64,000 bases of DNA from Bacteroidota bacterium. GTDB taxonomy: Bacteria; Bacteroidota; Ignavibacteria; UBA10030. The DNA lies in assembly GCA_049644265.1 (NCBI GenBank), contig JBARRO010000139.1, forward strand, positions 5,462-69,461, read 5' to 3'. The stretch's first letter is position 1; every line of letters begins with the position of its first letter. Made by a program: the position numbers and the translations under genes. Positions 3,378-33,712 of this stretch are shown one piece after another. A model generated the notes under the pieces. That model was not told the DNA's origin. It made no database searches and saw only the letters and a program-made list of their open reading frames with translations.

Positions 3378-3380
3378 TTG

Positions 3381-4502: not shown

Positions 4503-4504
4503 GG

Positions 4505-11992: not shown

Positions 11993-12078
11993 TTCAGTTG
12001 AAGCAGGATGTGCGCCAAGAAGCTGTCGGAAAACCCGACAATACGCAGAATGACTCTGAATATAATACAAAAAGGAGG

Positions 12079-14898: not shown

Positions 14899-14948
14899 GA
14901 GGAAGTTGTTTGAATTGTTGGATGGTTGGTATCTTGAGAACGTCGGCT

Positions 14949-15518: not shown

Positions 15519-15540
15519 TGTTCCCCCCTCTCAACGATTT

Positions 15541-16704: not shown

Positions 16705-16705
16705 G

Positions 16706-16800
16706 GAGATTTAAGAGTTTAAAGTTTCTAGTTTAAAGTTTAGGGTTTGAGAGCTGAGGGCTGAGGTTTGGCGAGCACTACTTTAGTTTTGAGTTTGCAG
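16706..16800. repeat. GAGTTTA-period word array
   Basis: Sequence gagatttaagagtttaaagtttctagtttaaagtttagggtttgagagctgagggctgaggtttgg with a 7-nt period. Confidence 0.6.
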
Positions 16801-16837
16801 AAAAATTCCAGCGTGCAGGCAGTAGAGAAACCATTAC

Positions 16838-16925
16838 CCATTACTTATTGCTCATAGCTTATTCTCCGTTCTTCATTGTTCATTGCTCATTGTTCATTGC
16901 ATCATTGTCCATCGCATCGTTGTCC
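16838..16925. repeat. CATTGYYCATTG word array overlapping the 3' end of a CDS
   Basis: Sequence cattgttcattgctcattgttcattgcatcattgtccatcgcatcgttgtccattgcc. The part inside the gene encodes the DNDAMDNDAMNNEQ tail. Confidence 0.6.
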
Positions 16926-17403
16926 ATTGCCTTCTCCCACTCTTCAAACTCTTTCCTGGCAGCGACGTATTCGGGGATCGGAACAAACACCTTGGCCGGT
17001 TTGCTCAGGTTGCTGCGGGACTGAGGGGAGTCTCCGCCTCCGTCCCAGACAAATCCGATTGAATTGAAATTCTGCGGCAACACCGTGAATCCCTGCGATC
17101 CGAGGAATGAGCGGACGAGTTCTGCATCGTTGATTTCCGTCGATTGGAAGAGCTTTGCCCAATCCTGTTGGACCTCGACTTTGCAATGGCTCAGACAAAA
17201 CTGACGGCCGCGAACAACCTTCGCACATTCCTTGCAGACAACCTTCCGGCAGATAATGCAAACCCCTGACGAAATATTCTCCGGATGGGTCTCACAGAAG
17301 ACATCCGTTCCGCCCTCAAAGAGTATTCCGCAGTGGGGACAGAAATCGGAGTCTGCGGTGACTTCTTCAGAGCAGTTGGGACATGCGGTCAGTTGAGACA
17401 TAT
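16880..17403 (-). CDS. Zinc-ribbon / B-box-like plus DUF2007-like protein
   Basis: ATG at 17403 gives MSQLTACPNCSEEV. There are two Cys clusters (CPNC...CPHC and a B-box-like CETH...C..C..C...H..C). The C-terminus is a repeat-encoded low-complexity tail. The annotated 193-aa ORF has a further upstream in-frame extension that I discount. Confidence 0.55.
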
Positions 17404-17482
17404 AATAGACTCTTGGAGAAGGTGGTAGGTGTGAGGTGGTAGGAAGATATTCCCCTTCCACCTACGACCTATCACCTTCTTC

Positions 17483-19039
17483 CTATTTTATCTTCTCAGC
17501 AATGGACTTCGCTTGAAGGAAGAGCAACAGGTAGTCATGTCCGCCGGCTTTCGAATCCGTTCCCGACATATTGAATCCGCCGAACGGATGAACTCCTACA
17601 AGAGCTCCGGTAATTTTGCGATTCACATAAAAATTCCCCACATGAAAGGACTTCTTCGCCTTCTCGATCTTCTTTCGATTCCTTGTCCAAACACCGCCCG
17701 TGAGACCGAATTCCGTGTTGTTCGCTATCTCCAACGCCTGGTCGAAGTTCTTCGCTTTGATGACGGCCAGGACTGGTCCGAAAATTTCCTCCTGGGAAAT
17801 TGTCGCTTTCGCATCAACGTCAGCAATGACGGTCGGCTTGATGAAGTACCCGTCTTCGTTCAGACTCATTCCGCCGGCGATCAGGCGGCCGCCTTCCTGC
17901 TGCCCCTTTTCGATATACTGGAGGATTTTCTCCTGGGCGCCTTTGTTGATCACCGGACCGATGTAGTTCGACTGCTTTTCAGAATTTCCGACCACAAGTT
18001 TGCTGGTTTTCTCTTTCAGGAGGTCGACGAATTTGTCGTACACCTTTTCGACAACAATCGCCCGTGATGCAGCGGAACACTTTTGACCCTGGAAACCGAA
18101 AGCCGACACAACCGTCGCCTGAGCGGCGGCTTCAAGGTCGGTGTCATCGTCGACGACGATGGAGTCCTTTCCTCCCATCTCCACAACGACCCGCTTGAGC
18201 CATTTTTGTCCGGGCTGGACCTTTGCTGCAAGCTCGTTGATATGAATTCCAACTTCCTTGGATCCCGTGAATGAAATGAACCGGGTCAGTGGATGGGCGA
18301 CCATCGTGTCACCGACGGACCCGCCGGGTCCCGTGATAAAATTAATCACTCCTGCGGGCAATCCCACTTCGCGCATCAGGTTGAAGTAGTACCACCCTGT
18401 CAGGGGCGAATCGCTGGAGGGCTTGAGAGCAACGGTATTTCCCGTGACAACGGCGGCTGAGGCCATCCCCGTGAGGATGGCGAGTGCGAAGTTCCAGGGA
18501 GGAACCACAACACCGGCGCCAAGGGGGATGTACACCAGCTCGTTCTTTTCCTGCGGGTGCTTGACCACGGGCTGGGGTCCGGCAAACCGGAGCATCTCGC
18601 GAGCGTAGAACTCCATGAAATCGATCGCCTCAGCGGTATCGGCATCGGCTTCGGGCCACGTTTTGCCGACTTCGTAGACCATGACGGCGCTGAACTCGTG
18701 CTTTCTTTTACGCATCAACTTCGCGGCTTTGACGAGATATTCGACCCGCTTTTTCGGGTCGACCAGCTTCCATTGTTCGAATTTCGCCGCAGTAGTTTCC
18801 ACGGCTCTTTTTGCCAGTGCCTCATCGGCTTTCTGAAACACGCCGACCACTTGTGAGGGTTTGGAAGGATTATAGGAATAGAGCTTATTCTCAGTGCGGA
18901 TTTCTTCGCCGCCGATAACGATGGGGTATTCTTTACCGAAGTTCGCCTTCACTTTGGCCAGCGCCTTTTCCATTGCACTCCGGTTTGCCGGCTTTGTGAA
19001 ATCGGTCAACGGTTCATTCTTGAATTTCGGGAGAGCCAT
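17483..19039 (-). CDS. pruA: Aldehyde dehydrogenase, L-glutamate gamma-semialdehyde (1-pyrroline-5-carboxylate) dehydrogenase family
   Basis: 518 aa. ALDH fold with catalytic Cys (QGQKCSAASR) and conserved Glu (VVEMGGKD). N-terminal region resembles RocA/PruA. Confidence 0.8.
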   Translation of the reverse strand: MALPKFKNEPLTDFTKPANRSAMEKALAKVKANFGKEYPIVIGGEEIRTENKLYSYNPSKPSQVVGVFQKADEALAKRAVETTAAKFEQWKLVDPKKRVEYLVKAAKLMRKRKHEFSAVMVYEVGKTWPEADADTAEAIDFMEFYAREMLRFAGPQPVVKHPQEKNELVYIPLGAGVVVPPWNFALAILTGMASAAVVTGNTVALKPSSDSPLTGWYYFNLMREVGLPAGVINFITGPGGSVGDTMVAHPLTRFISFTGSKEVGIHINELAAKVQPGQKWLKRVVVEMGGKDSIVVDDDTDLEAAAQATVVSAFGFQGQKCSAASRAIVVEKVYDKFVDLLKEKTSKLVVGNSEKQSNYIGPVINKGAQEKILQYIEKGQQEGGRLIAGGMSLNEDGYFIKPTVIADVDAKATISQEEIFGPVLAVIKAKNFDQALEIANNTEFGLTGGVWTRNRKKIEKAKKSFHVGNFYVNRKITGALVGVHPFGGFNMSGTDSKAGGHDYLLLFLQAKSIAEKIK

Positions 19040-19189: not shown

Positions 19190-22069
19190 TTAGGGTGTTG
19201 AGTCCCGACCCTTATCGCTGACGTTCCCTTCATCTTTCAATGCATGTAGAATCGCATCGTGAATTCTGGGGCGAGCGCGTGCTATTCTGCCGAAGTTGCG
19301 ACTCGGATAAACACGATTCGTGAGGAGGACAATAATCACGTTCTTTTCCGGGTCCGCGACGACAGAAGTTCCTGTGAATCCCGTATGAAGAAACGTCTTC
19401 ATCGACGTGAGCGTTCCGGAGAACGATCGCCCGGAAGTCTTCGTATCCCATCCAATTGCCCTGCTGTCCTTTTCCGACTGACGCTCGATGAACCTGGAAA
19501 TAGTCTCTTTGCTGATGTAGCGCTTTCCTCCGTAGGTGCCGCCGTTGAGAAGCATTTGCATGAAGATCGCAAGGTCCGAGGTTGTCGAAAACAGACCCGC
19601 ATGGCCCGACACTCCTCCGAGCGTCGCCGCATTCTCGTCATGCACGCGGCCACGCACAGCCACTCCCGTGTGGCGCCAATACGTATCAACCTCCGTCGGG
19701 GCGATTCGGTCGATGAGGCGCTGCGGAGGATTGTACGTCGTGCTCCTCATCCCGAGCGGCTTGAAGAACAAAGAGTCCACGTACTTGTCCAGTCCGACGC
19801 CGGTGATTCTTTCTATCACCTTTCCTGTCGTAATTAATCCGAGGTCACTATACAAGGTCGAATCACCTGTTTTGTAGATCAGTCCTGTGGCAAAGACCGA
19901 GTCGACAACGCACTGGGAATCCTGACAGAAATCGTAGAATCGCCTCCATGCCGGCAGTCCGCTGTTGTGAACCATCAGGTTGTAGAGCGTGATGTTCTCT
20001 TTTCCGTTTTGTCCAAACCGCGGGAGATACTGCACAACCCGGTCTTCCAGTCTCAACTTCCCTTCGTCTACAAGCCTCATTACTGCGCTTGTTGTTGCGA
20101 TGACTTTTGTGACTGACGCGAGGTCGTAGATGGTGTTGACGTCAACACGCTTTGAATAGAGCCCGTACTCGTAGCCGCCGAATGCTTTGTTGTAGACTAT
20201 GACCCCATTCCTCGCGGCGAGGAGGACACCGCCCGGGAAGGCCGAATCTTGTATCGATGATTCTACGACATCGTCAACCTTTTGAAGTTCGGCTCTGTCG
20301 AATCCAACTTCCTCCGGCGCTCCAGTTCTCATCGTTGTTTTTGGATACTCAATGCCGTCGCCGAAATTGTAGACTCCCGGTACGGTGATCGGCAGTTTCC
20401 CCACCGCAGGAGATTCTGCAAACAGCACTTCCGCGGCGGCCTGCTCCATGACGTCCGCATCGGAGTACGTGCACACATACGCGTCGACCTGCGGAAACTC
20501 CATGACTACGTATGGATTTCCGAACGAGACAGCAACGACAGGTTTTTTCAAAGCGAGGAGATTCTGCATCAACGCCGCCAGCTTGGGATCGACGAACCCG
20601 GTCATTTCACCGGAGCGGGTGTAGAGATGAAGCTGACAAAGCAGGATATCGGCGGTCTTTGCTTTCACGAGGAGCGAATCGTACTCCATCCGGTTGCTTC
20701 GGGGATCAATCGTCGCACGGCCAACCCTCCCACGCCGGGCCTGAAGAAGCCGATGGAACCCGTCGCCGGCAGAGGGATCCTCCGTGTCGGAAATAATGAC
20801 GTCGAGGATTTTCGTCGTGTCCGTCTTCGGAAGAGGCAGAATGCCGCTCTTGTTTCCCAGGACCGTCACCGCTTTGCGCGCGATTTCCGTCGCGAGCAAC
20901 TGATGCGGCCGCGTGCCAACCTGCTCGTAGATTTTGGCAACATCAACGTATCGATTAGCATCCAAACCCATTCGCTGTTTGATCTTCAGCAGTTTCCGGA
21001 CCGAACCGTTGATCCGCTCTTCAGTTATTTCTCCGTTCTTCACTGCAGCGACGATGGCATCGACGGCGAGGTCGGGGTCTACAGGCATGAGAACCAGGTC
21101 GACTCCGGCCTTGATAGCGAGGACCGCCGCCTCGCCCGGCGCATATTTTTTCGCCACACCGGCCATTTGCATGGCATCAGTGACCACAAGTCCGTCGAAC
21201 TTCAATTCGTCTTTGAGGAGCTTCGTCGTGATGTTCGGCGAGACCGTTGCTGGAACGCCTGGAACTGAATCGTAGACGGGAACTGCGAGATGACCGATCA
21301 TCACGGAGAGAGCTCCCGCGTTGAATGACTGGACGTATGGGGGAAGGTCACGTTTCTCCAACACGTCTTTGCCAAAGTTCAGAATGGAAAGACCAAGATG
21401 AGTGTCAACGTCCGTGTCCCCGTGTCCGGGGAAATGCTTCACGGTGGCGATCATGCCGCCGTCCTGGGTCCCTTTCACGAATGCGGCTCCCATTTCGGAA
21501 ACCAGTTTCACCTCATCGCCAAACGCCCGAGTGTTGATGACGGGATTCTTCGGGTTGACGTTCACGTCGATATCGGGTGCGTAGTTCTGATGAACTCCGA
21601 GCGCTCGTCCCTCGATTGCCGTGACCTTGCCGACTTCGTAGGCATAGCCAGGATTTCTCGTCGCTCCGATCGCCATCGCCCGCGGAAACGTCGTCGAGCC
21701 ATGGACGCGCATCCCGACACCGTATTCAAAATCTCCTGCAATGAGCAGCGGAACATCGGCGTGTTCCTGGAGCTTGTTGATTTGCACGGCGTATTCGTAC
21801 ACATCTCCGATAGAGAAGATGAATCCTCCGAGTTTCCTCTCCTGAGTGAGGCGTTCAAGCTCTTGCCACCGGTCCGAGTCCTTCGGATAGTATTTCCCGA
21901 GCGTCCAGACAAAAACCAGCTGGGAGACTTTTTGTTCAAGCGGAAGACGCTGAAGGGTTGATTCAACCCAGTCGGGACCCACTGAGACGGTGGTTTGTGG
22001 GGGTATGGATGTGGAACAGCCGAGTCCAAGGAGGATAACGAAAACGAAAATTGTGAGTGATTTGGTCAT
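19190..22069 (-). CDS. nagZ: Bifunctional beta-N-acetylhexosaminidase (GH3, NagZ-like) fused to a beta-lactamase-fold serine hydrolase; lipoprotein
   Basis: 959 aa. Lipoprotein signal with LGC lipobox. N-terminal GH3 motifs KHFPGHG and Asp nucleophile region GLVVTDAMQMAGV. C-terminal domain carries an SxxK motif (SVTK) and beta-lactamase-fold features. Confidence 0.85.
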   Translation of the reverse strand: MTKSLTIFVFVILLGLGCSTSIPPQTTVSVGPDWVESTLQRLPLEQKVSQLVFVWTLGKYYPKDSDRWQELERLTQERKLGGFIFSIGDVYEYAVQINKLQEHADVPLLIAGDFEYGVGMRVHGSTTFPRAMAIGATRNPGYAYEVGKVTAIEGRALGVHQNYAPDIDVNVNPKNPVINTRAFGDEVKLVSEMGAAFVKGTQDGGMIATVKHFPGHGDTDVDTHLGLSILNFGKDVLEKRDLPPYVQSFNAGALSVMIGHLAVPVYDSVPGVPATVSPNITTKLLKDELKFDGLVVTDAMQMAGVAKKYAPGEAAVLAIKAGVDLVLMPVDPDLAVDAIVAAVKNGEITEERINGSVRKLLKIKQRMGLDANRYVDVAKIYEQVGTRPHQLLATEIARKAVTVLGNKSGILPLPKTDTTKILDVIISDTEDPSAGDGFHRLLQARRGRVGRATIDPRSNRMEYDSLLVKAKTADILLCQLHLYTRSGEMTGFVDPKLAALMQNLLALKKPVVAVSFGNPYVVMEFPQVDAYVCTYSDADVMEQAAAEVLFAESPAVGKLPITVPGVYNFGDGIEYPKTTMRTGAPEEVGFDRAELQKVDDVVESSIQDSAFPGGVLLAARNGVIVYNKAFGGYEYGLYSKRVDVNTIYDLASVTKVIATTSAVMRLVDEGKLRLEDRVVQYLPRFGQNGKENITLYNLMVHNSGLPAWRRFYDFCQDSQCVVDSVFATGLIYKTGDSTLYSDLGLITTGKVIERITGVGLDKYVDSLFFKPLGMRSTTYNPPQRLIDRIAPTEVDTYWRHTGVAVRGRVHDENAATLGGVSGHAGLFSTTSDLAIFMQMLLNGGTYGGKRYISKETISRFIERQSEKDSRAIGWDTKTSGRSFSGTLTSMKTFLHTGFTGTSVVADPEKNVIIVLLTNRVYPSRNFGRIARARPRIHDAILHALKDEGNVSDKGRDSTP

Positions 22070-22177
22070 GAGATGTGGAGGGCGATAAGTTGAGAGATCA
22101 GTGTTCAGTTTACCCGCCGGGTGACTTATCTGGAATTTCTGTCGTCTGCAATCTGTAATCTGTCGTCTGCACTCTGT

Positions 22178-23458
22178 TCACGCTTTCTTTTTTCCGAATT
22201 CCGGGTCGATTTTCACGAGCGCTGCCACGAGGAAGCCGGGGATCGTGGAAGCCATGACCCAGAGGAAGAAATTCTTGTAGCCGATGGCATCCTGGATTGC
22301 TCCGCTGAACATTCCGGGGAGCATCATCCCGAGGGCCATGAATCCCGTGCAGATGGCATAGTGCGCGGTTTTATAGCGCCCTTCGGAAACCAGGATCATG
22401 AACATCATGTATGCAGTAAATCCGAATCCGTATCCGAATTGCTCCACGGCTACGGCCGCGTTAATAAACAACAGGTTCGTCGGCTGCACATGAGAAAGGT
22501 AGACGAACATTGCATCGGGAAGATGTATGGACAGGACCATGATCCAGAGCCAGAACTTGAGCCCCTTCTTCGCGATCACAAAGCCGCCGAGCAATCCGCC
22601 GAGCGTCAGAGCAATGATGCCGACCGTGCCGTAGACAATTCCGACTTCGCTTGTGGTGAGGCCGAGCCCGCCTTTGTCCCGTGCGTCGAGGAGAAACGGC
22701 GATACGAGTTTGACCAGCTGAGCTTCGGCAAACCGATACAGGAGAAGAAAGGCAAGAATAGTAATGATCTCCTTGCGCTTGAAGAACACAACGAACACTT
22801 CGAGGAATTTTGTGACAACTCCTGAGGATCCTTCACCAGGGTTTGAAACGTCGGATACGGGATACGGGAGGAGGAATTTGTGATAGATGAAGAACAGCAG
22901 GAAGAGGCCGGCGAGCAATCCGAAGGCAATCGACCAGGCAACCGTAATGCTTCCGCTGGTCGTTTCGATCGATCCCGCGAGAACCACGAGGGCGCCCTGA
23001 GCCGTGATCATCGCTATTCGATAGAAAGTGCTGCGTACTCCGACGAACGCCGCCTGCTGATGCTCCGGAAGAGCAAGCATGTAGAAGCCATCTGCAGCGA
23101 TATCGTGCGTCGCAGAGCTGAACGCCATGAGCCAGAATACCGCAAGCGTGTATTGGAAGAACGACGGCAGTGGAATCGTCAGCGCGACCCCAGCGAGTCC
23201 TGCTCCGATGAGTAGCTGCATCGTAATGATCCAGAATCGCTTGGTCTTGAGAATGTCGACCACAGGGCTCCACAGCGGCTTGATGACCCACGGGAGGTAG
23301 AGCCAGCTTGTATACAGGGCGATGTCGGTGTTCGAGATCCCCATACGTTTGTACATGATGACGGAAACCGTCATCACAACGACGTACGGAAGGCCCTCGG
23401 CAAAGTAAAGAGTCGGGACCCAAGCCCAGGGATTGCGGGATGCGGGAGTAGAGGCCAT
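22178..23458 (-). CDS. ampG: Muropeptide MFS transporter AmpG family
   Basis: 426 aa, 12 TM. N-terminus WVPTLYFAEGLPYVVV and overall AmpG-like sequence. Confidence 0.85.
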   Translation of the reverse strand: MASTPASRNPWAWVPTLYFAEGLPYVVVMTVSVIMYKRMGISNTDIALYTSWLYLPWVIKPLWSPVVDILKTKRFWIITMQLLIGAGLAGVALTIPLPSFFQYTLAVFWLMAFSSATHDIAADGFYMLALPEHQQAAFVGVRSTFYRIAMITAQGALVVLAGSIETTSGSITVAWSIAFGLLAGLFLLFFIYHKFLLPYPVSDVSNPGEGSSGVVTKFLEVFVVFFKRKEIITILAFLLLYRFAEAQLVKLVSPFLLDARDKGGLGLTTSEVGIVYGTVGIIALTLGGLLGGFVIAKKGLKFWLWIMVLSIHLPDAMFVYLSHVQPTNLLFINAAVAVEQFGYGFGFTAYMMFMILVSEGRYKTAHYAICTGFMALGMMLPGMFSGAIQDAIGYKNFFLWVMASTIPGFLVAALVKIDPEFGKKKA

Positions 23459-23773
23459 GAGAGTGATAAGGTTTAATAAGGAGTATTCAGTTCGTTGGAT
23501 ATTGGGTGTTGGTTATTGAGTGTTGGACATTGAAAAAGATTCAATTTCCAATAACGAATGTTTGGGAGTTGGGCATTGAAAAAAGACTCAACATCCAATA
23601 GCATCGTCCGATGTCCAATTACCAAGGAGTAAGACCTTGAGAGTTGATCATTGGGAGTTGGAAATTGAAAGCTGAAAGATTCAAATTCCAATACCCAACA
23701 ATCAACATCCAACGTTCAAGGGAACACACCTTGGACATTGGAAATTGGCTATTGGAGATTGGACATTGAATCT
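23459..23773. repeat. Cluster of TTGGA(C/A)ATTGA...TCAAT(G/T)TCCAA hairpin repeats
   Basis: At least five imperfect inverted-repeat units (for example ttggaaattgaa-agctgaaaga-ttcaaattccaa) fill the whole 315-bp gap between ampG and the spoIID-like gene. Confidence 0.7.
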
Positions 23774-25102
23774 TCAATACAGTTTCTGAAGTTCCGCCCC
23801 ACGAAAATAGTGTTTCACAATTTCTTCCGCGCCGAATCCTTTGGCAGCCATCACGGCAGCGCCGATCTGGCAAAGTCCGACTCCGTGTCCCCAACCACCG
23901 CCGCGGAGCGTGAATTGTGTTGGAGTTCCCTGCGAGTCCTTTTCCGTCTCCACAATGAACGCGGAGCTGTACAGATGACTCTTCGAAAGCCACCGACGGA
24001 TTTCCAGTTCTTTTCCTACAACAATCGTCTTTTTGGTCCCCTCAATCCTGAGCCGGAAGATTCTGCCCGACGGACCACGCTGCAACGGGACCAGGTTCAG
24101 GATGGTTCCAAAGTCAATGCCCGACTTCGACTTGATAAGTTCTTCGAGCGCTTCGCGATTGTAGACCACCGTCCAACGGAAGAAATCCGTGGTTTCCTGG
24201 TCAAACGACGGCAGGACCTGTTTCAGAATCTTTCCGTCCGCGGTGTTGCAATACGCGTCGGGGGAAGAATGAAGCCACTCAGCTGCGCGGGATTCAGTGA
24301 CAACGGGAGCGTAGTGATTTGCTGAATCGGAAACGGAGCTGAGATACGGGATGGACAACTCTTCCCAACAGCTTTCAAACAGCTCCGACAGCCCTCCGCA
24401 AGACTTGGAGAATCGCGCATCGCAAACCTGATTATCGTGAATCAGAAACGTGCCCCGGGTTGCTTCCACGGCCTCGGCGGCGGCCTTCGAAATGATTTTC
24501 GTGAGGCCTTGGTAGCGCTGGCAATGGTCGTCCGCACAAACGTCGAACAGGGCATGATCCTCGCGGTCATACCAGCGAACAATTTCCTCTGCAGTCTGGC
24601 GCGATCTCTGCGAAGGGACGCCGACGTTCTTCTTTTCCCGTTCAAGCATCGCGACGAGCCAGCTTCGGGAGGTGATCGCGTGGGCCTTGAGCAAGTCAAT
24701 CGGAGCTTCCGCGCTCATTTCCGATGAGATGACACTCTTGAGGTATTCTTCAACACCGACCTCGTTGATGGCTGTAATGGTGCCATCCTCCCTGGCGAGC
24801 AGGCGAAGACTGCCGGGAAATGTCTGCGTCTCCCTCCGCTCCCAGTGAAATCCGACTCCAATCGTCACGTTCGCAAGCTTGAACGGCAGACCCTCGAGCG
24901 GTTTGCAGAGGAATTCCTTCTGCCGGATAATTTCTTTCCCGGTTTTGTTCTTAAGAACCACTGCACCATGTTCGACGCTCGCGGTAAATTCCCCCTGGAC
25001 TCCAAACACATTCCCTACAACAAATTTCCCGTCAAACGACCCTTCGACGCGAGGCTCGTGCTCGAACATTCCGACGGTGATAAGGGGCTCTTTGGAAACC
25101 AT
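23774..25102 (-). CDS. SpoIID/LytB domain protein
   Basis: 442 aa. C-terminal SpoIID signature GGGWGHGVGLCQIGA. Confidence 0.8.
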   Translation of the reverse strand: MVSKEPLITVGMFEHEPRVEGSFDGKFVVGNVFGVQGEFTASVEHGAVVLKNKTGKEIIRQKEFLCKPLEGLPFKLANVTIGVGFHWERRETQTFPGSLRLLAREDGTITAINEVGVEEYLKSVISSEMSAEAPIDLLKAHAITSRSWLVAMLEREKKNVGVPSQRSRQTAEEIVRWYDREDHALFDVCADDHCQRYQGLTKIISKAAAEAVEATRGTFLIHDNQVCDARFSKSCGGLSELFESCWEELSIPYLSSVSDSANHYAPVVTESRAAEWLHSSPDAYCNTADGKILKQVLPSFDQETTDFFRWTVVYNREALEELIKSKSGIDFGTILNLVPLQRGPSGRIFRLRIEGTKKTIVVGKELEIRRWLSKSHLYSSAFIVETEKDSQGTPTQFTLRGGGWGHGVGLCQIGAAVMAAKGFGAEEIVKHYFRGAELQKLY

Positions 25103-25103
25103 T

Positions 25104-25172
25104 GGGAGTTTCTAGTTTCTAGTTTCTGGTTTCTGGTTTAGAGTTTAGAGTTTAGAGTTTCTAGTTTCTGCG
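25104..25172. repeat. GAGTTTC/TAGTTTC heptamer array
   Basis: Sequence gagtttctagtttctagtttctggtttctggtttagagtttagagtttagagtttctagtttctg. Confidence 0.7.
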
Positions 25173-25203
25173 CCGAGCCGAGGATCGCAGAGTTGCTGAA
25201 TGC

Positions 25204-26175
25204 TCATTCAGCCCTTGCGATCTTCTGCATATCGTCGTCCTCGATGGTTACCTCACGAAAGATCGCTTCGACCATCTTTGCGTCCAGACTTCGAAAATCC
25301 TTTTCGCGGGGAGTGACGATGAGTCCGCCGATGTCGACAGCAGCCGGACTGATCAGGACCTGCTTATCACCCTTCTTGAAGTACACTTCGGGTCGGTGTT
25401 TTCGACGCGGGAATACAATGAGCCGCCACAAACGGCCGGTGCAGGAACAAAGGACATTCATCATTGGCTCTTCAACCGTTCCAAAAGCGTGTTTCCACAC
25501 CTTCAGAAGATTCAAGAACGAGTTTTCGAGTTCGGATTGGTCCTTCGACTCCAGCACAACGACTTGTCGGCCATAGTTTTGGAGCAAGAACTTCGAAACA
25601 GATCCCTTGTTTTTCAACAGAACCCGTCGCTTCGGATCCAGCGCTTCTTTTTCCACCGGTATTGCTCCGGAAGGACTCGCCTGAAAATGCATATGGTCTG
25701 GGGCGGAGGCCCCACATCGAGGCCCGTTGTAGAAAACTGTGAAGCCCGGACTCAGGTCTTTCGCCAGGTTCAAAAACGTGTGAACGAACGGCTCGAGCGA
25801 CTGCGGTATATGCGCGAGATTGGAAATCGTATAGTGTTGCCTGAAGATTGGAGCCGGATTGCAGAGGACGAGAAAATCCTCCCCGTACAATATCCCCTGC
25901 TGCTCTTTGGGCAGGTTTTCGACACACAGAAAGCAGGGCCGCGCTTCGATCGACTTCGCATCTACCTTTGCGCCGGTGCTGACAATCCTGCCAGGATTCC
26001 ATTGGAGCCACGCCGAGAATCCCGTGCACTGAATTTCACGGATCTGGATCTTTTCCAAGGAAGCGTAGCCCGCGGCGAGCGTTTTCCACGATCGCTTCTG
26101 TTGCTCGAGCAACTGGAGCGATAGCGAACTCAGACTCGCACCACCACGACGAAATGTTTTGAAGAGCTTATCCAC
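25204..26175 (-). CDS. HIT-superfamily GalT-like protein (HxHxQ motif), DUF4922-like
   Basis: 323 aa, GTG start. Contains HMHFQ (GalT/Ap4A-phosphorylase-branch HIT motif) and a CFLC pair. Family assignment is from memory. Confidence 0.5.
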   Translation of the reverse strand: MDKLFKTFRRGGASLSSLSLQLLEQQKRSWKTLAAGYASLEKIQIREIQCTGFSAWLQWNPGRIVSTGAKVDAKSIEARPCFLCVENLPKEQQGILYGEDFLVLCNPAPIFRQHYTISNLAHIPQSLEPFVHTFLNLAKDLSPGFTVFYNGPRCGASAPDHMHFQASPSGAIPVEKEALDPKRRVLLKNKGSVSKFLLQNYGRQVVVLESKDQSELENSFLNLLKVWKHAFGTVEEPMMNVLCSCTGRLWRLIVFPRRKHRPEVYFKKGDKQVLISPAAVDIGGLIVTPREKDFRSLDAKMVEAIFREVTIEDDDMQKIARAE

Positions 26176-26291
26176 GAAGAAATACCACGAAGGTCACTAA
26201 GGACACAAAGGAAAGAAATAATATTGAGAGAGAATCGTTGGACCGATTTCGAATAAAACCCTTAGTGTTCTTCGTGTCCTTCGTGGTTCAC
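26172..26291. repeat. CACGAAGG / CCTTCGTG word repeats arranged as an inverted pair
   Basis: ccacgaaggtcactaaggacacaaagg...aatattgag at the left, and cccttagtgttcttcgtgtccttcgtgg at the right. Confidence 0.65.
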
Positions 26292-26803
26292 TTTCCTTTC
26301 TTGACAGACTGAACCGGAACATACCCAATATAGTGGTTGACCTTCGTGGAGCCCATGGTGAAGGGCTCTTCTTCTGCGACCTGGAATCCCATACCCTTAT
26401 ACCAATCCACCGCCGAGCGGTTTTCCACCATCACTCCCAGCCAGATTCTATCCAACCCATGTGAGACAGCTTCGTCGGCAGCCATCACCATGAGTGTTCG
26501 CCCGATGCCCTTGCTTTGAAACTCCGGAAGTATATAAAGGGAGGAAACATAATGCCGTTCTTCTTCTTTGTTGAACTTTGTACGTACAAATCCGGCAACG
26601 GTGCCTTCGGCTTCTGCCACAAATCCGTTCACCGTCGGGTCCGCGAAGAGTTTCTTCATCGACGCTTCGTCGTAGGTTTTTTCGAGATAAGATGTGAGGT
26701 CGGATTCCGGAATGAACGAATACGCATCGAGCCATGTCTTCCGGAGAATTTCGCGGATGGGGGACAGGTCTCGTTCCTGCCATCGGCGGTACGTGATGGT
26801 CAT
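26288..26803 (-). CDS. GNAT family N-acetyltransferase
   Basis: 171 aa. Acetyl-CoA-binding motif QSKGIGRTLM and a GNAT fold. Confidence 0.8.
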   Translation of the reverse strand: MTITYRRWQERDLSPIREILRKTWLDAYSFIPESDLTSYLEKTYDEASMKKLFADPTVNGFVAEAEGTVAGFVRTKFNKEEERHYVSSLYILPEFQSKGIGRTLMVMAADEAVSHGLDRIWLGVMVENRSAVDWYKGMGFQVAEEEPFTMGSTKVNHYIGYVPVQSVKKGK

Positions 26804-28278
26804 CCCTTCTTCCCCGACCGGTTCATCTGCTGGCGGGCAAGCATCTCAATCGTGCGGATCCTGTCCTTGTAGGAATCGTTGCGGTTGGCTTTTTCCACGG
26901 AGAGCGCGGCGTCGGTGTTACCCTCCCAGCGCCTGCAAAGATAGATGGGCTCGAAAATTCTGCCGATCTGATATTCGCGTGACAGCCGGAGAGCAACTGC
27001 ATAATCTTCGCCGTAGCTGACGTTGGGAAGTTTCACTTCTCTCAGCAATGCAGTGTTAAAGGCCCGCGGGGCGCCAAGGCCATTGATCCGAAGCGCATTG
27101 TTGCGGCCGTTACCGGGAGTCCATTCTTTGTGGTCGATCAGTCCGGGAGGTATCTCTTCAAGCTTCATGTTCACAAGTTTGTACGAACCAATGACCATGG
27201 CGTAGTGACCACCGCGGAAGAGATCGACAACTTTTTGGAGCGTGGTGTCTCCGCTGTAGATATCGTCTGAATCAAGCTGGACTGCATAGCGTCCACAGTA
27301 TTCCGACTGAACGGCTTCATTCCAGCACCCTCCGATGCCGAGGTCCTGGCGGGAGGGGATAAGATGTTTCACCAACCGGTTTTGACCGGACAGGTCTGAT
27401 AGTATCCGCGTTGTTCCGTCCGTCGAATGGTTGTCGACCACGATAATGTTGAAAGGAAAATCTGTCTTCTGCTTCATCACGCTGTTCACCGCATCGCCGA
27501 TGGTCAGCTCCCGGTTGCGAACCGGAATGATCACACTCGCTTCAGTCACGAACGCCGCTGTAGACTTCGGGACTTTCTTGAATTTTGGCTTCAGATACAC
27601 TTCAACGTTCTTCAGGTGCCGGGTGGCGACATCCTCCAATTCTATCTGCACCTGCCGGTTCTTCGGGTCGACGTAATCGAAGAGTTTCTCTCCAGTCTTC
27701 CGGAGATCCGACTCAACAGCCGTGCAGAGATATTCCTGGATGTGAAAGAGGGAATGGTCGATCGAAACTTTCAATCGCAAATCGTAGAGCCCGGCCCGTT
27801 CAACGATGCTGATTGCTCCGTAGCGCTTCAGGGCTTTTCTGATCGCTGCCGTTCCAAAGAGCATCAAGGGGCCAAAATCGAAGCCATCGCGGATGCTGCC
27901 GAACTGATAGTCATTTACGGGATGCTCCGACCGAATACCGTTCTTCACGTCAAAATAATCCGCATAGACCATTCCCACACCCGGAAGCTCTGCCAAGGCG
28001 ACCAATCGCTCAAGTGCGGACTGACCCAGCTGAATTTCCTGTGAACGAGTCGCAAAGAGAACGAAGTCAGTCTTTATTTTTGCGATCAGTTCATTGACCG
28101 TCTTTCCCGAGGTGAACGCGTCCGAGCGGACTCCTTCGCAGTTTGGGTAGGAGCCGGCAAAATCCCCGCCATGCACGACGAAGATCTTCTGGACGAGAGA
28201 CGAAGTGAAAAATTGTTTGAGGGTATTCTGAAAATCCAGATTGGGATTGTAAGGCAGAACAACAGAGATCGAACTCAT
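26800..28278 (-). CDS. Family-2 glycosyltransferase (two GT2-like modules)
   Basis: ORF 26800-28299. Probable ATG at 28278 (MSSISVVLPYNPN). A second GT2 core is SVIIPVRNRE...VVDNHSTDGT. Confidence 0.75.
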   Translation of the reverse strand: MSSISVVLPYNPNLDFQNTLKQFFTSSLVQKIFVVHGGDFAGSYPNCEGVRSDAFTSGKTVNELIAKIKTDFVLFATRSQEIQLGQSALERLVALAELPGVGMVYADYFDVKNGIRSEHPVNDYQFGSIRDGFDFGPLMLFGTAAIRKALKRYGAISIVERAGLYDLRLKVSIDHSLFHIQEYLCTAVESDLRKTGEKLFDYVDPKNRQVQIELEDVATRHLKNVEVYLKPKFKKVPKSTAAFVTEASVIIPVRNRELTIGDAVNSVMKQKTDFPFNIIVVDNHSTDGTTRILSDLSGQNRLVKHLIPSRQDLGIGGCWNEAVQSEYCGRYAVQLDSDDIYSGDTTLQKVVDLFRGGHYAMVIGSYKLVNMKLEEIPPGLIDHKEWTPGNGRNNALRINGLGAPRAFNTALLREVKLPNVSYGEDYAVALRLSREYQIGRIFEPIYLCRRWEGNTDAALSVEKANRNDSYKDRIRTIEMLARQQMNRSGKKG

Positions 28279-28329
28279 GCGATTGAGGCTTTCATTCAAC
28301 AGTTGGATAAAACTACGAGACGGCGAATG

Positions 28330-29292
28330 CTATTCTTTGGAGTGCTTTTGTGAGACAGCCAGAGCTATCAAGGCTGCTCCGTGAACCGGATTTGCCTCAG
28401 GTTGCCTGAGAAGAACGCGGGGAAGACGTTTCCTGATCAGGCCTTTGACTTTCCTGGAATACAGATTCTCCCGGGTGATCAGGCTGCCGGCAAAGGAAAC
28501 TGCGGTCTTTCCACTCTGCCTTCCAGTCGCGTGCAAGCGAATGAGGGCAATCTGGATGACATCTACAAGGTCTTCTGCCGCTTTGGTCAAAATGCCGCCT
28601 GCAATCCTATCCCCTTTTTCCGCCGCTTCGACCACCCCCGGAACGACGGACGCAATATCAAATCCCTCTTTATACAGAGCGGTGATAATCGATTCCTGCG
28701 TGCCGAATCCTAATCGTTGAGTGAAGATTCTGGCGAGCGTCGTCTTCTTGATGCGCCCATCCAGCATTCTGGCTACTGCCCGAAACGCCTCCGTTCCAAT
28801 CCAGTAACCGCTCCCTTCATCCCCGATTAATCTCCCCCACCCCCCTGCCCTGTGAATCCTTCCCTTCTCATCCTTACCGAATACGATCGACCCTGTTCCC
28901 GCAATGACGATCACACCGGGTGCACCGGAAAACGCACCTTCAAGGGCTATGCGCGCGTCGCTTTCAACGGCGAATCGAGGGATTCCCATGCGTTTCGCAG
29001 TCGCCATGCGTTTGAGAGCCACAGCCATCCGTTGTTGGTCGACGGGACGACCAGCGCCCGTCAATCCGGCCACCACCGCCGCAACCGCAGAGGTCCCGCA
29101 TCCGGCAGTGTCGCAGCATGTCTCAACAAGGTCGAGAATTGTTTTCGCCGCCTGCTCAACACCGATGACCTGAAAGTTCGACGGACCACCCTGTGCTTTT
29201 GCGCGAACGGTTCCCTCGAGACTGCACAACTCCGCCGCAGTCTTCGTCCCCCCACCATCGAGACCGATAACAAACGATTTTTTTTCGTTCAT
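28330..29292 (-). CDS. BadF/BadG/BcrA/BcrD-type sugar kinase (GlcNAc/MurNAc kinase-like)
   Basis: 320 aa. N-terminal IGLDGGGTKT, DEGSGYWIG and an ASKHA fold. Confidence 0.75.
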   Translation of the reverse strand: MNEKKSFVIGLDGGGTKTAAELCSLEGTVRAKAQGGPSNFQVIGVEQAAKTILDLVETCCDTAGCGTSAVAAVVAGLTGAGRPVDQQRMAVALKRMATAKRMGIPRFAVESDARIALEGAFSGAPGVIVIAGTGSIVFGKDEKGRIHRAGGWGRLIGDEGSGYWIGTEAFRAVARMLDGRIKKTTLARIFTQRLGFGTQESIITALYKEGFDIASVVPGVVEAAEKGDRIAGGILTKAAEDLVDVIQIALIRLHATGRQSGKTAVSFAGSLITRENLYSRKVKGLIRKRLPRVLLRQPEANPVHGAALIALAVSQKHSKE

Positions 29293-29430: not shown

Positions 29431-29561
29431 CTTACCATACCCGTGGTATCTCTTTTCATTTTTTCCTATTATCGAATTGCTTCCAGAATCGGGAAACCTT
29501 CAGTCCGTTTTGTTGTTGTACACCCTGAATTCTCTTGTTGAACCTCTTTGAGGAATTGTTG

Positions 29562-30041
29562 ATGAAAAAGGCGTGTGCTGTTTTCATAGGTGCCCTGCTT
29601 CTCATGGGAAGTACAGAAGCGTTTCAGGCGAAGAAGAAAGCGCCATCATTCTCCTTGAAGACGTCACAAGGAACGACAGTCGATTTGAAGAAGCTGAAGG
29701 GAAAACTCGTTCTCGTAAATTTCTGGGCGACGTGGTGCGGCCCTTGCCGGGCCGAGATTCCGGCCTTTGTCGATCTCTACGAACAATACAAGGATAAAGG
29801 TCTGGAGATTGTGGGGATTTCGGTTGACGATAACGGCTGGTCGGAGGTTAAACCGTTTGTCGAAAAGTACAAAATCAATTACCCGGTTGTGATCGATAAC
29901 GGATCGGCCGTGCGCGCGTACGGTAACTTCAGCGCCATTCCAGTGACCTTCGTCATCGACAAAGAAGGTAATCTCGTCGACCGTCACATCGGCCTCATGA
30001 AAAGAGAAATGCTGGAGAGTCTCATAAAATCCAATTTGTGA
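29562..30041 (+). CDS. tlpA: TlpA/ResA-like periplasmic thiol-disulfide oxidoreductase
   Basis: RBS gagga upstream. Signal peptide MKKACAVFIGALLLMGSTEA and WCGPC thioredoxin motif. Confidence 0.85.
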   Translation: MKKACAVFIGALLLMGSTEAFQAKKKAPSFSLKTSQGTTVDLKKLKGKLVLVNFWATWCGPCRAEIPAFVDLYEQYKDKGLEIVGISVDDNGWSEVKPFVEKYKINYPVVIDNGSAVRAYGNFSAIPVTFVIDKEGNLVDRHIGLMKREMLESLIKSNL

Positions 30042-30097
30042 GACTCACCCCAAAAACGCCCACGCATAGTTGTCTCTCCTCTTGACTGACCCACACT

Positions 30098-31879
30098 ATG
30101 TCTAGACTTCTCGCAACCTGTCTGGCCTTCGCACTCGTCCTGCCGGCCCGCGTGTGCTATGCACAGAGCTTAGCCAGTGCGAAACAATTGGGCGTTGTCA
30201 CCTTCCTTTCCACCGACAAGATCCGGGCGGGAGAAACAACGCGGATCGCCGTTCAGCTGACGATCAACGAAGGCTGGCACGTCAACTCGCATCGTCCCAC
30301 ATTCGATTACCTGATCCGGACCGACCTGACTTTTAATCAGAACGCAGGGTATCTTGTCGCAGATATCCAGTATCCAGCGGGAAAGACCGAGAAGCTCGCG
30401 TTTGCTGACGAACCTCTCGATGTCTACCAGGGAACTGTCACCGTTGTCGCATCACTCCGGTTTTCCGACCTGATCGCTGTTGGCCCCGACACCATCCGGG
30501 GAGCCGTCCAGGTCCAGGCCTGCAACGACCAGGTGTGCCTCGCACCGTCCGCAATCCCGATTGTAATCCCCGTTGAAGTTGTTTCCGCCAGCGAATCCGT
30601 CCATGCGAACCATCCCGAGATTTTCAGTGCTGCCGGAACTGGTGAAGCGAAGCAATCATCCGGCGGGGGGAATGAACTCGCGGCCATGTTTGAAGAGCGG
30701 GGATCGTTCGTAACGTTTCTTGCAATTTTCCTGATCGGACTCGCCCTCAACCTCACGCCGTGCGTGTATCCCATGCTGTCTGTGACCGTTTCCCTGTTCG
30801 GTACACAAACGGAAGCGCGCATGCTGCGCGTGTTTCTCAAAGCGGTCGTCTACGTGCTCGGCATTGCAACGATGTACAGCGTGCTCGGAGTAACAGCAGC
30901 ACTTGGCGGTGGACTATTCGGCAGCTGGCTTCAGAGTCCATGGGTGCTCGGCGGAATCGCCGTTCTGCTTTTTGGCCTTGCTCTCAGCTCCTTCGGTCTC
31001 TATCAGATTCAGATGCCTTATTGGCTCACGAGCCGCCTCGGCGGAACGACAGGGACCGGGGTTATCGGTTTGTATCTCTCGGGACTCGTCGTCGGCGTCT
31101 TTGCAGCTCCGTGTGTCGGTCCGCCCGTCATTGCCCTGCTCACGCTTGTCGGCACAAAGGGAGATCCGTTCTTCGGCTTCTGGTCGTTCTTTACCCTCTC
31201 CCTCGGGCTCGGCTTTCCCTATCTGATCCTCGGGACATTTTCGGGGCTTCTCAAGAAAATTCCCCGTTCGGGCGCATGGCTTGTGTGGGTTGAGAGGATC
31301 TTTGGCGTTATTCTTACGGGAGCCGCGTTATTCTATCTCGCTCTCGCTGTTGCACCTTCGTACGCATCGTATGTCATTCCGCTCATCCTTATTGTCGGCG
31401 GCATCTATCTTGGATTCGTTGACCGGTCCGGCAAGGACAAGAAAGTGCTTCAGCGTATCCAGTGGCTCTTCGGCGTTGCCTGCGTGGTCGTCGGAGTTAT
31501 TTTTGCAAACGGACTCCGCAAACCGGGAATATCCTGGGAGTCATACTCCGATGAAAAACTTATGGCCGCGAAGGCACAGCAAACGCCGGTGGTGATGGAT
31601 TTCTATGCCGACTGGTGCATTCCTTGTCTGGAGCTTGACCGGAGCACGTTCACGGATCCTTCCGTCGTCAGTGCCACGAAGAATTTTCGCCGGCTCAAGG
31701 TCGACCTGACCCACTTTGATTCTGCGGACGCCGAGGCATTGCGAAAGAAGTTCGGTATTTCCGGAGTCCCGACGGTGATATTTCTGAATGTCGGCGGCGA
31801 GGAAGTGACCTCATCGCGCATCATTGGATACGTTACTCCGGAGGTGTTTGTGGAGAAGGTGGGGGGAGCAGGTAAGTAG
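30098..31879 (+). CDS. dsbD: Thiol:disulfide interchange protein DsbD
   Basis: 593 aa. N-terminal periplasmic domain, central TM domain with CVYPML, and C-terminal thioredoxin WCIPC. Confidence 0.85.
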   Translation: MSRLLATCLAFALVLPARVCYAQSLASAKQLGVVTFLSTDKIRAGETTRIAVQLTINEGWHVNSHRPTFDYLIRTDLTFNQNAGYLVADIQYPAGKTEKLAFADEPLDVYQGTVTVVASLRFSDLIAVGPDTIRGAVQVQACNDQVCLAPSAIPIVIPVEVVSASESVHANHPEIFSAAGTGEAKQSSGGGNELAAMFEERGSFVTFLAIFLIGLALNLTPCVYPMLSVTVSLFGTQTEARMLRVFLKAVVYVLGIATMYSVLGVTAALGGGLFGSWLQSPWVLGGIAVLLFGLALSSFGLYQIQMPYWLTSRLGGTTGTGVIGLYLSGLVVGVFAAPCVGPPVIALLTLVGTKGDPFFGFWSFFTLSLGLGFPYLILGTFSGLLKKIPRSGAWLVWVERIFGVILTGAALFYLALAVAPSYASYVIPLILIVGGIYLGFVDRSGKDKKVLQRIQWLFGVACVVVGVIFANGLRKPGISWESYSDEKLMAAKAQQTPVVMDFYADWCIPCLELDRSTFTDPSVVSATKNFRRLKVDLTHFDSADAEALRKKFGISGVPTVIFLNVGGEEVTSSRIIGYVTPEVFVEKVGGAGK

Positions 31880-33639: not shown

Positions 33640-33712
33640 CAAAGGGCACGAAGGGGAATACGTCATAATCCCTTGGAAATTGGATGTTCGACATTGATTA
33701 TTGAGTGTTGAT
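33640..33712. repeat. One CACGAAG word element plus one TTGGAAATTGGA...GACATTGA element
   Basis: ccacgaagttcacaaagggcacgaaggggaatac and cttggaaattggatgttcgacattgattattgagtgttg. These are members of the families seen at 26172 and 23459. Confidence 0.5.

Follow-up and report, generated by a model that had tools for sequence, protein, structure and literature searches.

A GT2 glycosyltransferase paired with a DUF4922 HIT protein in a probable peptidoglycan-fragment salvage operon of Bacteroidota

Introduction

Peptidoglycan recycling has been mapped in detail for only a few Proteobacteria and Firmicutes. In Bacteroidota a question is what becomes, in the cytoplasm, of the N-acetylglucosaminyl-(1,6-anhydro-)N-acetylmuramic acid (GlcNAc-(anh)MurNAc) that AmpG imports. 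A locus that bears on this question lies in a 64,000-nucleotide stretch of DNA from a Bacteroidota bacterium of the Ignavibacteria (GTDB UBA10030; contig JBARRO010000139.1, positions 5,462 to 69,461), referred to here as the window. Between window positions 19190 and 29292 the list of open reading frames (ORFs) and the Pfam and NCBIfam matches reveal seven genes in one orientation, all on the minus strand, for a BadF-type sugar kinase, a GT2 glycosyltransferase, a GNAT N-acetyltransferase, a DUF4922 HIT protein, a SpoIID-like protein, an AmpG-like permease and a lipoprotein joining a GH3 domain to a penicillin-binding protein (PBP)-like domain. Why should a glycosyltransferase and a HIT protein stand among genes for the import of wall fragments?

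An original prediction, made from the letters of the sequence, had taken the upstream part of this row for an unconventional pathway in which a kinase supplies a nucleotidyltransferase with a sugar 1-phosphate. We arrive at a different arrangement. We put at about 85% the probability that the seven-gene row serves as an operon for salvaging peptidoglycan fragments. Within it the GT2 and DUF4922 proteins are probably coupled through a nucleoside diphosphate sugar (NDP-sugar), since one NDP-sugar common to both is the simplest reason for a GT2 to be paired with an NDP-sugar phosphorylase. More tentatively, and at somewhat less than an even chance, we infer that the pair works in the degradative, phosphorolytic direction by way of a UDP-amino sugar and without hydrolysis. 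Three points go beyond the original prediction: the SpoIID-like protein is predicted to be cytoplasmic, the GT2 consists of two GT-A domains in tandem, and the cluster is orthologous to Tanf_08345-08385 of Tannerella forsythia.

Results

The GT2 and DUF4922 genes are linked across phyla

Scanning genomes with a DUF4922 profile yielded at least 591 relatives that were confirmed, and 80 loci were kept; linkage was assessed by tblastn and ORF clustering. The loci come from Ignavibacteria-like and other Bacteroidota, from Bacteroidales (Marinifilum, Labilibaculum, Muribaculaceae, Paludibacter), from Syntrophales and from a metagenome-assembled genome (MAG) labelled Acidobacteriota, and to judge from the taxon names most of the host lineages seem to be anaerobic. 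In 67 of the 70 evaluable loci a GT2 gene precedes DUF4922 on the same strand at a distance of up to 3 kb, an arrangement far beyond chance; in the other three it is found elsewhere in the locus. In the complete genome of Bacteroides sedimenti (AP028055.1; locus L081), 4-nt start/stop overlaps join GT2, DUF4922 and SpoIID.

The other genes of the row are linked less regularly. SpoIID-like and AmpG genes accompany the pair in about 40% of loci, the former immediately downstream of DUF4922 in 25/69 (with 6 elsewhere in the locus) and the latter downstream in 22/62 (with 3 elsewhere). A GNAT gene stands between GT2 and DUF4922 in 23/77 loci, the kinase occurs anywhere in the locus in 14/80 and the GH3/PBP fusion in 8/80. 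Further neighbours are an AmiA-like/DUF1460 amidase (15 loci), NamZ, MurQ, an AmgK-MurU fusion and a secreted Amidase_3 protein. The original prediction had tied these genes to wall recycling, and that tie is borne out by the conserved SpoIID-like, AmpG, AmiA-like, NamZ, MurQ and AmgK-MurU neighbours. It had also named a lack of co-conservation among relatives as grounds for giving it up. The GT2-DUF4922 pair is near-universal, but the set as a whole does not travel as a unit, and on its own terms the prediction is therefore partly undone. We considered the kinase as a core member and rejected this, given linkage in only 14 of the 80 loci; it is an accessory, variably linked member. Chance adjacency of a capsule or exopolysaccharide cluster was likewise rejected, as the linkage is conserved across phyla.

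The DUF4922 protein belongs to the GalT/Ap4A-phosphorylase branch of HIT enzymes

The DUF4922 protein matches its Pfam family at 188 bits against a cut-off of 23.6 bits. An identical protein (P0001) is recorded from a Bacteroidota MAG, with closest relatives labelled Ignavibacteriales; precomputed Pfam matches to PF26216 (GDPGP1_C) exist for it and for relatives, and relatives also show a weak match to PF19327 (Ap4A_phos_N). The HxHxQ motif takes the form HMHFQ (residues 161-165, window 25681-25695) and is kept in 79 of 80 genomic relatives, as HMHFQ, HLHFQ, HFHFQ, HHHFQ, HLHLQ or HRHFQ. In a 24-sequence alignment C81-F-L-C84 (window 25924-25935), H114, H122 and D160-H-M-H-F-Q165 are invariant, among them candidate residues for a GalT-type structural metal site (CxxC plus His ligands), namely CFLC, His114, His122 and His161; a CxxC pattern is found by regular expression in 61 of 80 relatives.

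At the level of sequence, the DUF4922 profile matched only spurious designed proteins in the PDB. Comparison of structures was more productive: the AlphaFold (AF2) model (pLDDT 88, pTM 0.89) has the two-lobed HIT fold of Apa2 and GalT, and Foldseek places yeast diadenosine tetraphosphate (Ap4A) phosphorylase Apa2 at the top (E 4.5e-10, TM-score up to 0.67), followed by DUF4931, the Arabidopsis GalT-like protein At5g18200 (1z84) and GalT, with At5g18200 and GalT at about 1e-4 to 1e-5. The Pfam check that had been proposed for 25204-26175 thus returns DUF4922 in the GalT/Ap4A-phosphorylase branch; the fold match, the GDPGP1_C and DUF4922 domains and the HxHxQ motif together uphold the earlier call of a HIT/GalT-like protein with HxHxQ.

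Enzymes of the GalT branch transfer a nucleotidyl group, through a histidine, between NDP-X and phosphate or a phosphate ester, and for VTC2, GDPGP1 and Apa1/2, characterised members of the branch, the physiological direction is phosphorolysis. The protein is accordingly best described as a predicted nucleotidyl-His enzyme, an NDP-sugar phosphorylase or transferase. The GDP-glucose phosphorylase orthologues described in the GDPGP1/mcp-1 paper carry DUF4922. A literature search for a function of bacterial DUF4922, for a UDP-GlcNAc phosphorylase and for a Bacteroidetes GlcNAc-anhMurNAc phosphorylase found nothing relevant.

With Apa2 as the top structural match, one could imagine that the protein is an Ap4A phosphorylase or a sanitiser of aberrant nucleotides, whose position beside GT2 has no pathway meaning. 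The weak Ap4A_phos_N match and the JGI labels of several members (ATP adenylyltransferase / Ap4A phosphorylase II) are in keeping with such a housekeeping role. However, the strong Pfam matches are to DUF4922 and GDPGP1_C, which are GDP-hexose phosphorylase domains, and neither near-obligate adjacency and translational coupling with one GT2 across phyla nor fusion to the cluster's GNAT (see below) would be expected, so that we regard this explanation as very improbable.

The GT2 protein consists of two GT-A halves

The GT2 protein, whose translation probably begins at the ATG at 28278, is recognised by Pfam through its C-terminal half (80.7 bits against a 23.3-bit cut-off for Glycos_transf_2). 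This half is canonical, with VDNHSTDGT, GIGGCWN, QLDSDD and YGEDYA all invariant, and the DxD motif is present as an invariant DSDD (residues 343-346, window 27262-27273). The N-terminal half has no Pfam match even at E<=10. In the AF2 model (pLDDT 82), residues 8-195 and residues 250-499 each form a Rossmann-like half. The best full-length Foldseek matches are the chondroitin polymerase K4CP (7e-18) and the heparosan synthase PmHS2 (1e-10), with TM-scores of only 0.3-0.38; TarS, at 25-27% identity, is among the best matches to a single domain.

Aligned with hhalign, the two halves show a weak relation (E 5.5e-4, probability 30%), in which TRSQE of the N-terminal half (consensus TQxQE) falls opposite DSDD and Y172-D173 opposite E431-D432. 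Invariant in the N-terminal half are Y112, D114, R123, H126, P127, Y131, Q132, G134, S135, R137, D138, D173, R175 and K177. Because of this weak profile relation, the replacement of DSDD by TRSQE and the many invariant residues, we conclude that the N-terminal half is a second GT-A domain, diverged and lacking DxD, yet clearly constrained. The pattern of K4CP and PmHS2, a DxD in each of two GT-A domains, is not found here.

The SpoIID-like, AmpG-like and GH3/PBP proteins

The SpoIID-like protein matches TIGR02669 at 170 bits, against a cut-off of 83 bits. Its SSEM motif (window 24716-24727) holds the putative catalytic Glu128, which, as VISSEM, aligns with the Glu of ASEM/AGEM in the SpoIID structures 4rwr and 5i1t and which, after the SpoIID literature, we take to be the catalytic acid. 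The motifs VxSSEM and CADDHCQRY are conserved among the orthologues, the SSEM motif being found by regular expression in 30/32. The ORF cannot be extended upstream; it begins MVSKEPLITVGMFEH and contains no hydrophobic segment, nor was a hydrophobic N-terminus found in any of the 32 orthologues. The signal peptide or membrane anchor that places sporulation SpoIID and LytB outside the cytoplasm is thus absent, and a hydropathy scan likewise gave no transmembrane segment or signal peptide for the kinase, GT2, GNAT, DUF4922 and SpoIID-like proteins. We therefore predict that the SpoIID-like protein is a cytoplasmic enzyme of the lytic-transglycosylase type; for such an enzyme to be kept in the cytoplasm is unusual.

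The permease is polytopic and finds its best NCBIfam match in the AmpG family TIGR00901, at 188 bits and below the 350-bit cut-off. By position it is the orthologue of T. forsythia AmpG, for which an identity of only 27% to E. coli AmpG is reported. The GH3/PBP protein combines Glyco_hydro_3 (1.5e-77) and Beta-lactamase (2.6e-57) domains, with an NCBIfam PBP4B match of 241 bits, and starts with a lipoprotein signal (lipobox LGLGC). The sole N-acetylglucosaminidase of the row is thus, by the hydropathy scan, an exported protein. In the row, Pfam and NCBIfam found neither a cytoplasmic GH3 nor AnmK.

The structural matches of GT2 allow a further possibility, that the tandem GT-A protein is a bifunctional enzyme like the chondroitin and heparosan synthases and makes a cytoplasmic, GlcNAc-containing and possibly peptidoglycan-like glycan, which the SpoIID-like enzyme cuts to anhydro-disaccharides and the AmpG-like permease moves, with DUF4922 balancing the nucleotide-sugar pool. 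That K4CP and PmHS2 are the best full-length matches would fit, and so would the fact that SpoIID enzymes act on peptide-free glycan strands, together with a catalytic Glu kept in a SpoIID-like protein without an export signal. But the known polymerases have DxD in both halves, the TM-scores to them are low, AmpG of T. forsythia was demonstrated to work as an importer, and we see no physiological reason for making the product; we consider polymer synthesis improbable.

The kinase, the GNAT and the Syntrophales loci

The kinase scores 115 bits with NagK_SO3507 of NCBIfam, below the cut-off, and its best solved relative in a PDB search is 8zo3, a MurNAc/GlcNAc kinase (5e-39). TfMurK and K1058 of T. 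forsythia are not among its PDB matches at E<=1e-3 and are only distantly related to it. By these comparisons it resembles sugar 6-kinases, and its product would be a 6-phosphate. This does not sit with the idea that it feeds a nucleotidyltransferase, since a 6-phosphate cannot directly supply an enzyme that uses sugar 1-phosphates. No APH-type anomeric kinase and no NTP_transferase, the two parts of an AmgK/MurU module, were found by Pfam or NCBIfam among the seven genes or the scanned flanking ORFs. For the GNAT, NCBIfam and the PDB gave only generic PaiA/spermidine-acetyltransferase-like relatives, below the cut-off.

In three Syntrophales loci (L025, L027 and L039) GNAT and DUF4922 form a single ORF of 501-549 aa (for example 9434-10939 of L027). 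The gene order of L027 is SpoIID, AmpG, AmgK::MurU fusion, DUF748, GT2 and GNAT::DUF4922 fusion, with an AmiA-like gene and a phosphohexomutase (PGM_PMM) on the other strand; the AmgK-MurU-type fusion (3013-4767, 584 aa) joins NTP_transferase and APH domains. Both GNAT::DUF4922 and MurU::AmgK are Rosetta-stone fusions that tie activities together. Because a bona fide AmgK-MurU fusion coexists with DUF4922 in this cluster, we rejected the notion that DUF4922 is simply a substitute for MurU.

These loci bear most directly on a corrected form of the original idea, in which the pair would run in the synthetic direction: an amino-sugar 6-phosphate would become a 1-phosphate through a mutase, or an anomeric kinase encoded elsewhere would provide the latter, GNAT would N-acetylate, DUF4922 would form the NDP-sugar and GT2 would transfer the sugar to a soluble muropeptide-derived acceptor. 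The GNAT::DUF4922 fusions mimic the bifunctional logic of GlmU, and the mutase and the AmgK-MurU fusion of L027 would also suit such a route. So would the C-terminal half of GT2, which has every hallmark of a forward transferase and whose nearest single-domain structures, such as TarS, use UDP-GlcNAc. A further parallel is the bifidobacterial galacto-N-biose/lacto-N-biose (GNB/LNB) pathway, in which the HIT enzyme GalT2 is reported to perform a key step. Against this, the window kinase is of the 6-kinase type and rarely linked, those relatives of DUF4922 that have been characterised break down NDP-sugars as phosphorylases, and MurU already serves as uridylyltransferase where AmgK is present, as in L027. 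Moreover, neither acceptor nor product is evident, and operons whose other genes serve the uptake and breakdown of MurNAc leave little room for a synthetic step. On balance we find the synthetic direction unlikely.

The cluster corresponds to the MurNAc operon of Tannerella forsythia

In T. forsythia, Tanf_08345-08385 has been described as one transcript tied to MurNAc salvage. It comprises a "xanthan lyase", two "glycosyltransferases" (08350 and 08355), LytB (08360), AmpG (08365), NamZ1, MurT, MurK and MurQ; directly upstream lies the slow MurNAc kinase K1058, and a later paper gives the functions of Tanf_08350 and Tanf_08355 as unknown. Mayer et al. reported that AmpG is needed for the use of GlcNAc-MurNAc and GlcNAc-anhMurNAc and that GlcNAc-anhMurNAc can serve as sole MurNAc source, that no AnmK orthologue is predicted, and that the later steps "remain to be explored".

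The window has the order gtf - gtf - lytB - ampG on one strand. Two Bacteroidales loci, L078 (UBA7332) and L081, connect the two systems: both read GT2, DUF4922, SpoIID, MFS and NamZ, followed by a MurT-sized gene, a kinase and a SIS/MurQ gene, and Pfam-confirmed GT2 and DUF4922 genes occupy the two gtf positions of the published operon. Since both loci carry the pair at those positions, it is likely by inference from gene order that Tanf_08350/08355 are the tandem GT2 and the DUF4922 protein. Tannerella was absent among the best 120 matches listed in a homology search seeded with the UBA7332 protein. The cluster is thus a member of an operon type already published, with identities for its core enzymes that differ from the published labels.

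Between namZ and the murT/K/Q genes, L081 also encodes a 932-aa FAD_binding_4/FAD-oxidase_C/Fer4/CCG protein (14877-17675). From its domains we read this oxidase as D-lactate-dehydrogenase-like, which would fit the oxidation of D-lactate released by the MurQ etherase.

Layout of the gene row and its surroundings

Coordinates of the row are collected in Table 1. The original prediction had counted five genes in 25204-29292; there are four (kinase, GT2, GNAT and DUF4922). Its domain calls were all correct, with Pfam scores above gathering. The neighbours it had named are present, but in the order SpoIID-like, AmpG, NagZ/PBP rather than ampG-nagZ-spoIID.

Table 1. The seven genes of the row at window positions 19190-29292. 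All Pfam matches given exceed the gathering score.
Product	Coordinates	Strand	Length	Domain evidence
BadF/NagK/MurK-type ASKHA sugar kinase	29292-28330	-	320 aa	Pfam BcrAD_BadFG 5e-45
GT2 tandem GT-A glycosyltransferase	28299-26800	-	499 aa	Pfam Glycos_transf_2 1.5e-22, residues 255-403 only
GNAT N-acetyltransferase	26803-26288	-	171 aa	Pfam Acetyltransf_1 5e-21
DUF4922/GDPGP1-like HIT protein	26175-25204	-	323 aa	Pfam DUF4922 (PF16269) 8.5e-56
SpoIID/LytB-domain protein	25102-23774	-	442 aa	Pfam SpoIID 9e-23
AmpG-like MFS permease	23458-22178	-	426 aa	Pfam MFS_1; best NCBIfam AmpG family TIGR00901
GH3 NagZ-type + PBP4B/AmpH-like beta-lactamase-fold lipoprotein	22069-19190	-	959 aa	Pfam Glyco_hydro_3, Glyco_hydro_3_C, Beta-lactamase

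The start of the GNAT gene shares 4 nt with the stop of GT2, and the remaining intergenic gaps are 30-112 nt, with the exception of a 315-nt gap before ampG (23459-23773) that is filled with repeats of CCAAYNN at a 7-nt period, in blocks of opposite orientation. It folds into long hairpins (RNA minimum free energy -91 kcal/mol, against -58 +/- 4 for shuffled sequences; z = -8). The pattern CCAAYNNCCAAYNNYCAA, allowing up to one mismatch, occurs 25 times in the window against 0.16 expected, concentrated in this gap and in another between genes near 59.7 kb (59650-59735), and also at 33673-33690; no match to it was found in the 82 related loci searched. In the relatives checked (for example L001 and L003) the SpoIID-AmpG gap is only tens of nucleotides to about 110 nt, and for this reason the 315-nt gap looks like an inserted, genome-specific heptanucleotide repeat element resembling short tandemly repeated repetitive or repetitive extragenic palindromic (STRR/REP) elements. 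An Rfam scan of the whole window gave no match, and scans for sigma-70 promoters and terminators gave no more than the shuffle expectation, which is uninformative for a Bacteroidota-type genome.

On the same strand, 150 nt after the GH3/PBP gene, lies an aldehyde dehydrogenase gene (17483-19039, minus strand; Pfam Aldedh 1.9e-144); in 9 related loci a same-strand ORF family of similar size, matched by size only (cluster C13), is found about 7 kb downstream of DUF4922. On the other side of the row, upstream of the kinase and divergent from it (29535-31879, plus strand), are a thioredoxin/TlpA-like gene and a gene for a 593-aa membrane protein resembling DsbD-type thiol:disulfide interchange proteins, labels that we read from the translations. 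The same two genes stand upstream in 6 close relatives (clusters C24 and C25), which probably reflects lineage synteny rather than function. Farther away are a 904-aa protein with GH2 domains and a C-terminal Yip1 membrane domain (9356-12070, minus strand) and a 408-aa ORF without a Pfam match (15496-16722, plus strand).

Discussion

Taking these observations together, we propose the following route for wall-fragment salvage. The GH3/PBP-like lipoprotein would trim wall fragments outside the cytoplasm, and AmpG would bring in GlcNAc-(anh)MurNAc disaccharides, possibly with short glycans too. In the cytoplasm GT2 would act in a UDP-dependent reverse reaction on the beta-1,4-GlcNAc bond (GlcNAc-(anh)MurNAc + UDP → UDP-GlcNAc + (anh)MurNAc), and DUF4922 would interconvert UDP-GlcNAc + Pi and GlcNAc-1-P + UDP through a nucleotidyl-His163 intermediate. 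The net result would be a near-equilibrium, ATP-sparing phosphorolysis of the disaccharide, in place of the cytoplasmic NagZ that these clusters are without. The cytoplasmic SpoIID-like enzyme may act on imported fragments, at their MurNAc-GlcNAc bonds or their 1,6-anhydro bond, the GNAT may re-acetylate de-N-acetylated amino sugar, and the kinase could phosphorylate freed MurNAc or GlcNAc at C6. Freed MurNAc would be processed further either by the kinase and MurQ or by AmgK/MurU. Judged by family, none of the three soluble enzymes, that is the lytic transglycosylase, the glycosyltransferase and the phosphorylase, would be a hydrolase. As the Bacteroidales context is that of a catabolic operon (NamZ, MurT/K/Q), a synthetic glycosyltransferase fits it poorly.

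Several points weigh against this route. To our knowledge the family offers no precedent for a GT2 that runs backwards physiologically on an ordinary beta-glycoside; the reaction is thermodynamically uphill and would depend on tight coupling to the phosphorylase. The route leaves unexplained the N-terminal GT-A half, which lacks DxD but is strongly conserved, and also the GNAT::DUF4922 fusions, which resemble the combination of acetyltransferase and nucleotidyltransferase in GlmU and hint at synthesis; the phosphohexomutase near the pair in L027 also fits synthesis. Finally, in about half of the loci SpoIID-like and AmpG genes do not lie within 10 kb.

A farther-reaching version of the route is conceivable, although we regard it as a long shot, in which the three cytoplasmic enzymes would form a hydrolysis-free and ATP-free path from imported wall glycan to activated precursors. 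Here the SpoIID-like transglycosylase would save bond energy as 1,6-anhydro ends, and the tandem GT2 would run backwards with UDP on both beta-linked sugars to give UDP-GlcNAc and UDP-MurNAc directly. This would include a UDP-dependent opening of the strained 1,6-anhydro ring (anhMurNAc + UDP → UDP-MurNAc), with DUF4922 equilibrating UDP-GlcNAc and UDP-MurNAc with the sugar 1-phosphates. If true, such a path would replace NagZ, AnmK, MupP, AmgK and MurU, and would explain how bacteria lacking AnmK, such as T. forsythia, build wall from GlcNAc-anhMurNAc.

What is new here is that one of the two T. forsythia "gtf" genes, to judge from gene order, probably encodes a HIT enzyme resembling GDP-hexose phosphorylases and Ap4A phosphorylases, that its partner is a tandem GT-A protein and that the neighbouring SpoIID-like "LytB" is predicted to be cytoplasmic. 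The GT2-DUF4922 unit is conserved over anaerobic Bacteroidota, Ignavibacteria-like lineages and Syntrophales and thereby offers named, cloneable candidates for missing steps. If the proposed salvage route is true, it would represent a new enzymatic logic for amino-sugar salvage, in which a glycosyltransferase is coupled to a nucleotide-sugar phosphorylase, and it would bear on a MurNAc-auxotrophic periodontal pathogen (T. forsythia) and on muropeptide turnover in gut Bacteroidales.

Comparison with known systems

The closest counterpart is the T. forsythia operon, whose core order GT2 - DUF4922 - SpoIID/LytB - AmpG matches that of the window, apart from the GNAT insert of the latter. K1058 and the window kinase are both BadF-type and occupy the same position, directly upstream. 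The T. forsythia operon continues with NamZ, MurT, MurK and MurQ, whereas the window has the GH3/PBP-like lipoprotein instead. The architecture of this 959-aa protein, GH3 plus beta-lactamase, is rare and is the same as that of RmNag3 from Rhodothermus, the only characterised example, described as a beta-N-acetylglucosaminidase with a signal peptide.

As for the individual enzymes, K4CP and PmHS2 are, like the window GT2, soluble proteins with two GT-A halves. They differ in having DxD in both halves rather than in the C-terminal half only, and in serving capsule synthesis rather than standing in a context of wall-fragment salvage. The DUF4922 protein has in common with the GDP-L-galactose phosphorylases VTC2/VTC5, the GDP-D-glucose phosphorylase GDPGP1, Apa2 and GalT the DUF4922 and GDPGP1_C domains, HxHxQ and the two-lobed HIT fold; its identity to Apa2 is about 15%, with no match to the PDB at the level of sequence, and unlike these enzymes it represents a bacterial clade locked to a GT2 partner. 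A different partnership is known from Bifidobacterium, where GalT2 works with an anomeric kinase and a GH112 phosphorylase, NahK providing it with N-acetylhexosamine 1-phosphate. GalT2 resembles the DUF4922 protein in being a GalT-branch HIT enzyme, and its pathway salvages disaccharides that contain N-acetylhexosamine. In the window, unlike in that pathway, the partner of the HIT enzyme is GT2 and the linked kinase is of the 6-kinase type.

The Pseudomonas route (AnmK, MupP, AmgK, MurU) and the E. coli route (AmpG, NagZ, AmpD, AnmK, MurQ) start, like the route proposed for the window, from GlcNAc-anhMurNAc imported by AmpG, and all of them would end in pools of UDP-sugar or sugar 6-phosphate. 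Between this common start and end, the place of the Pseudomonas and E. coli enzymes is taken in the window by GT2, the HIT phosphorylase-like protein and the SpoIID-like protein predicted to act in the cytoplasm.

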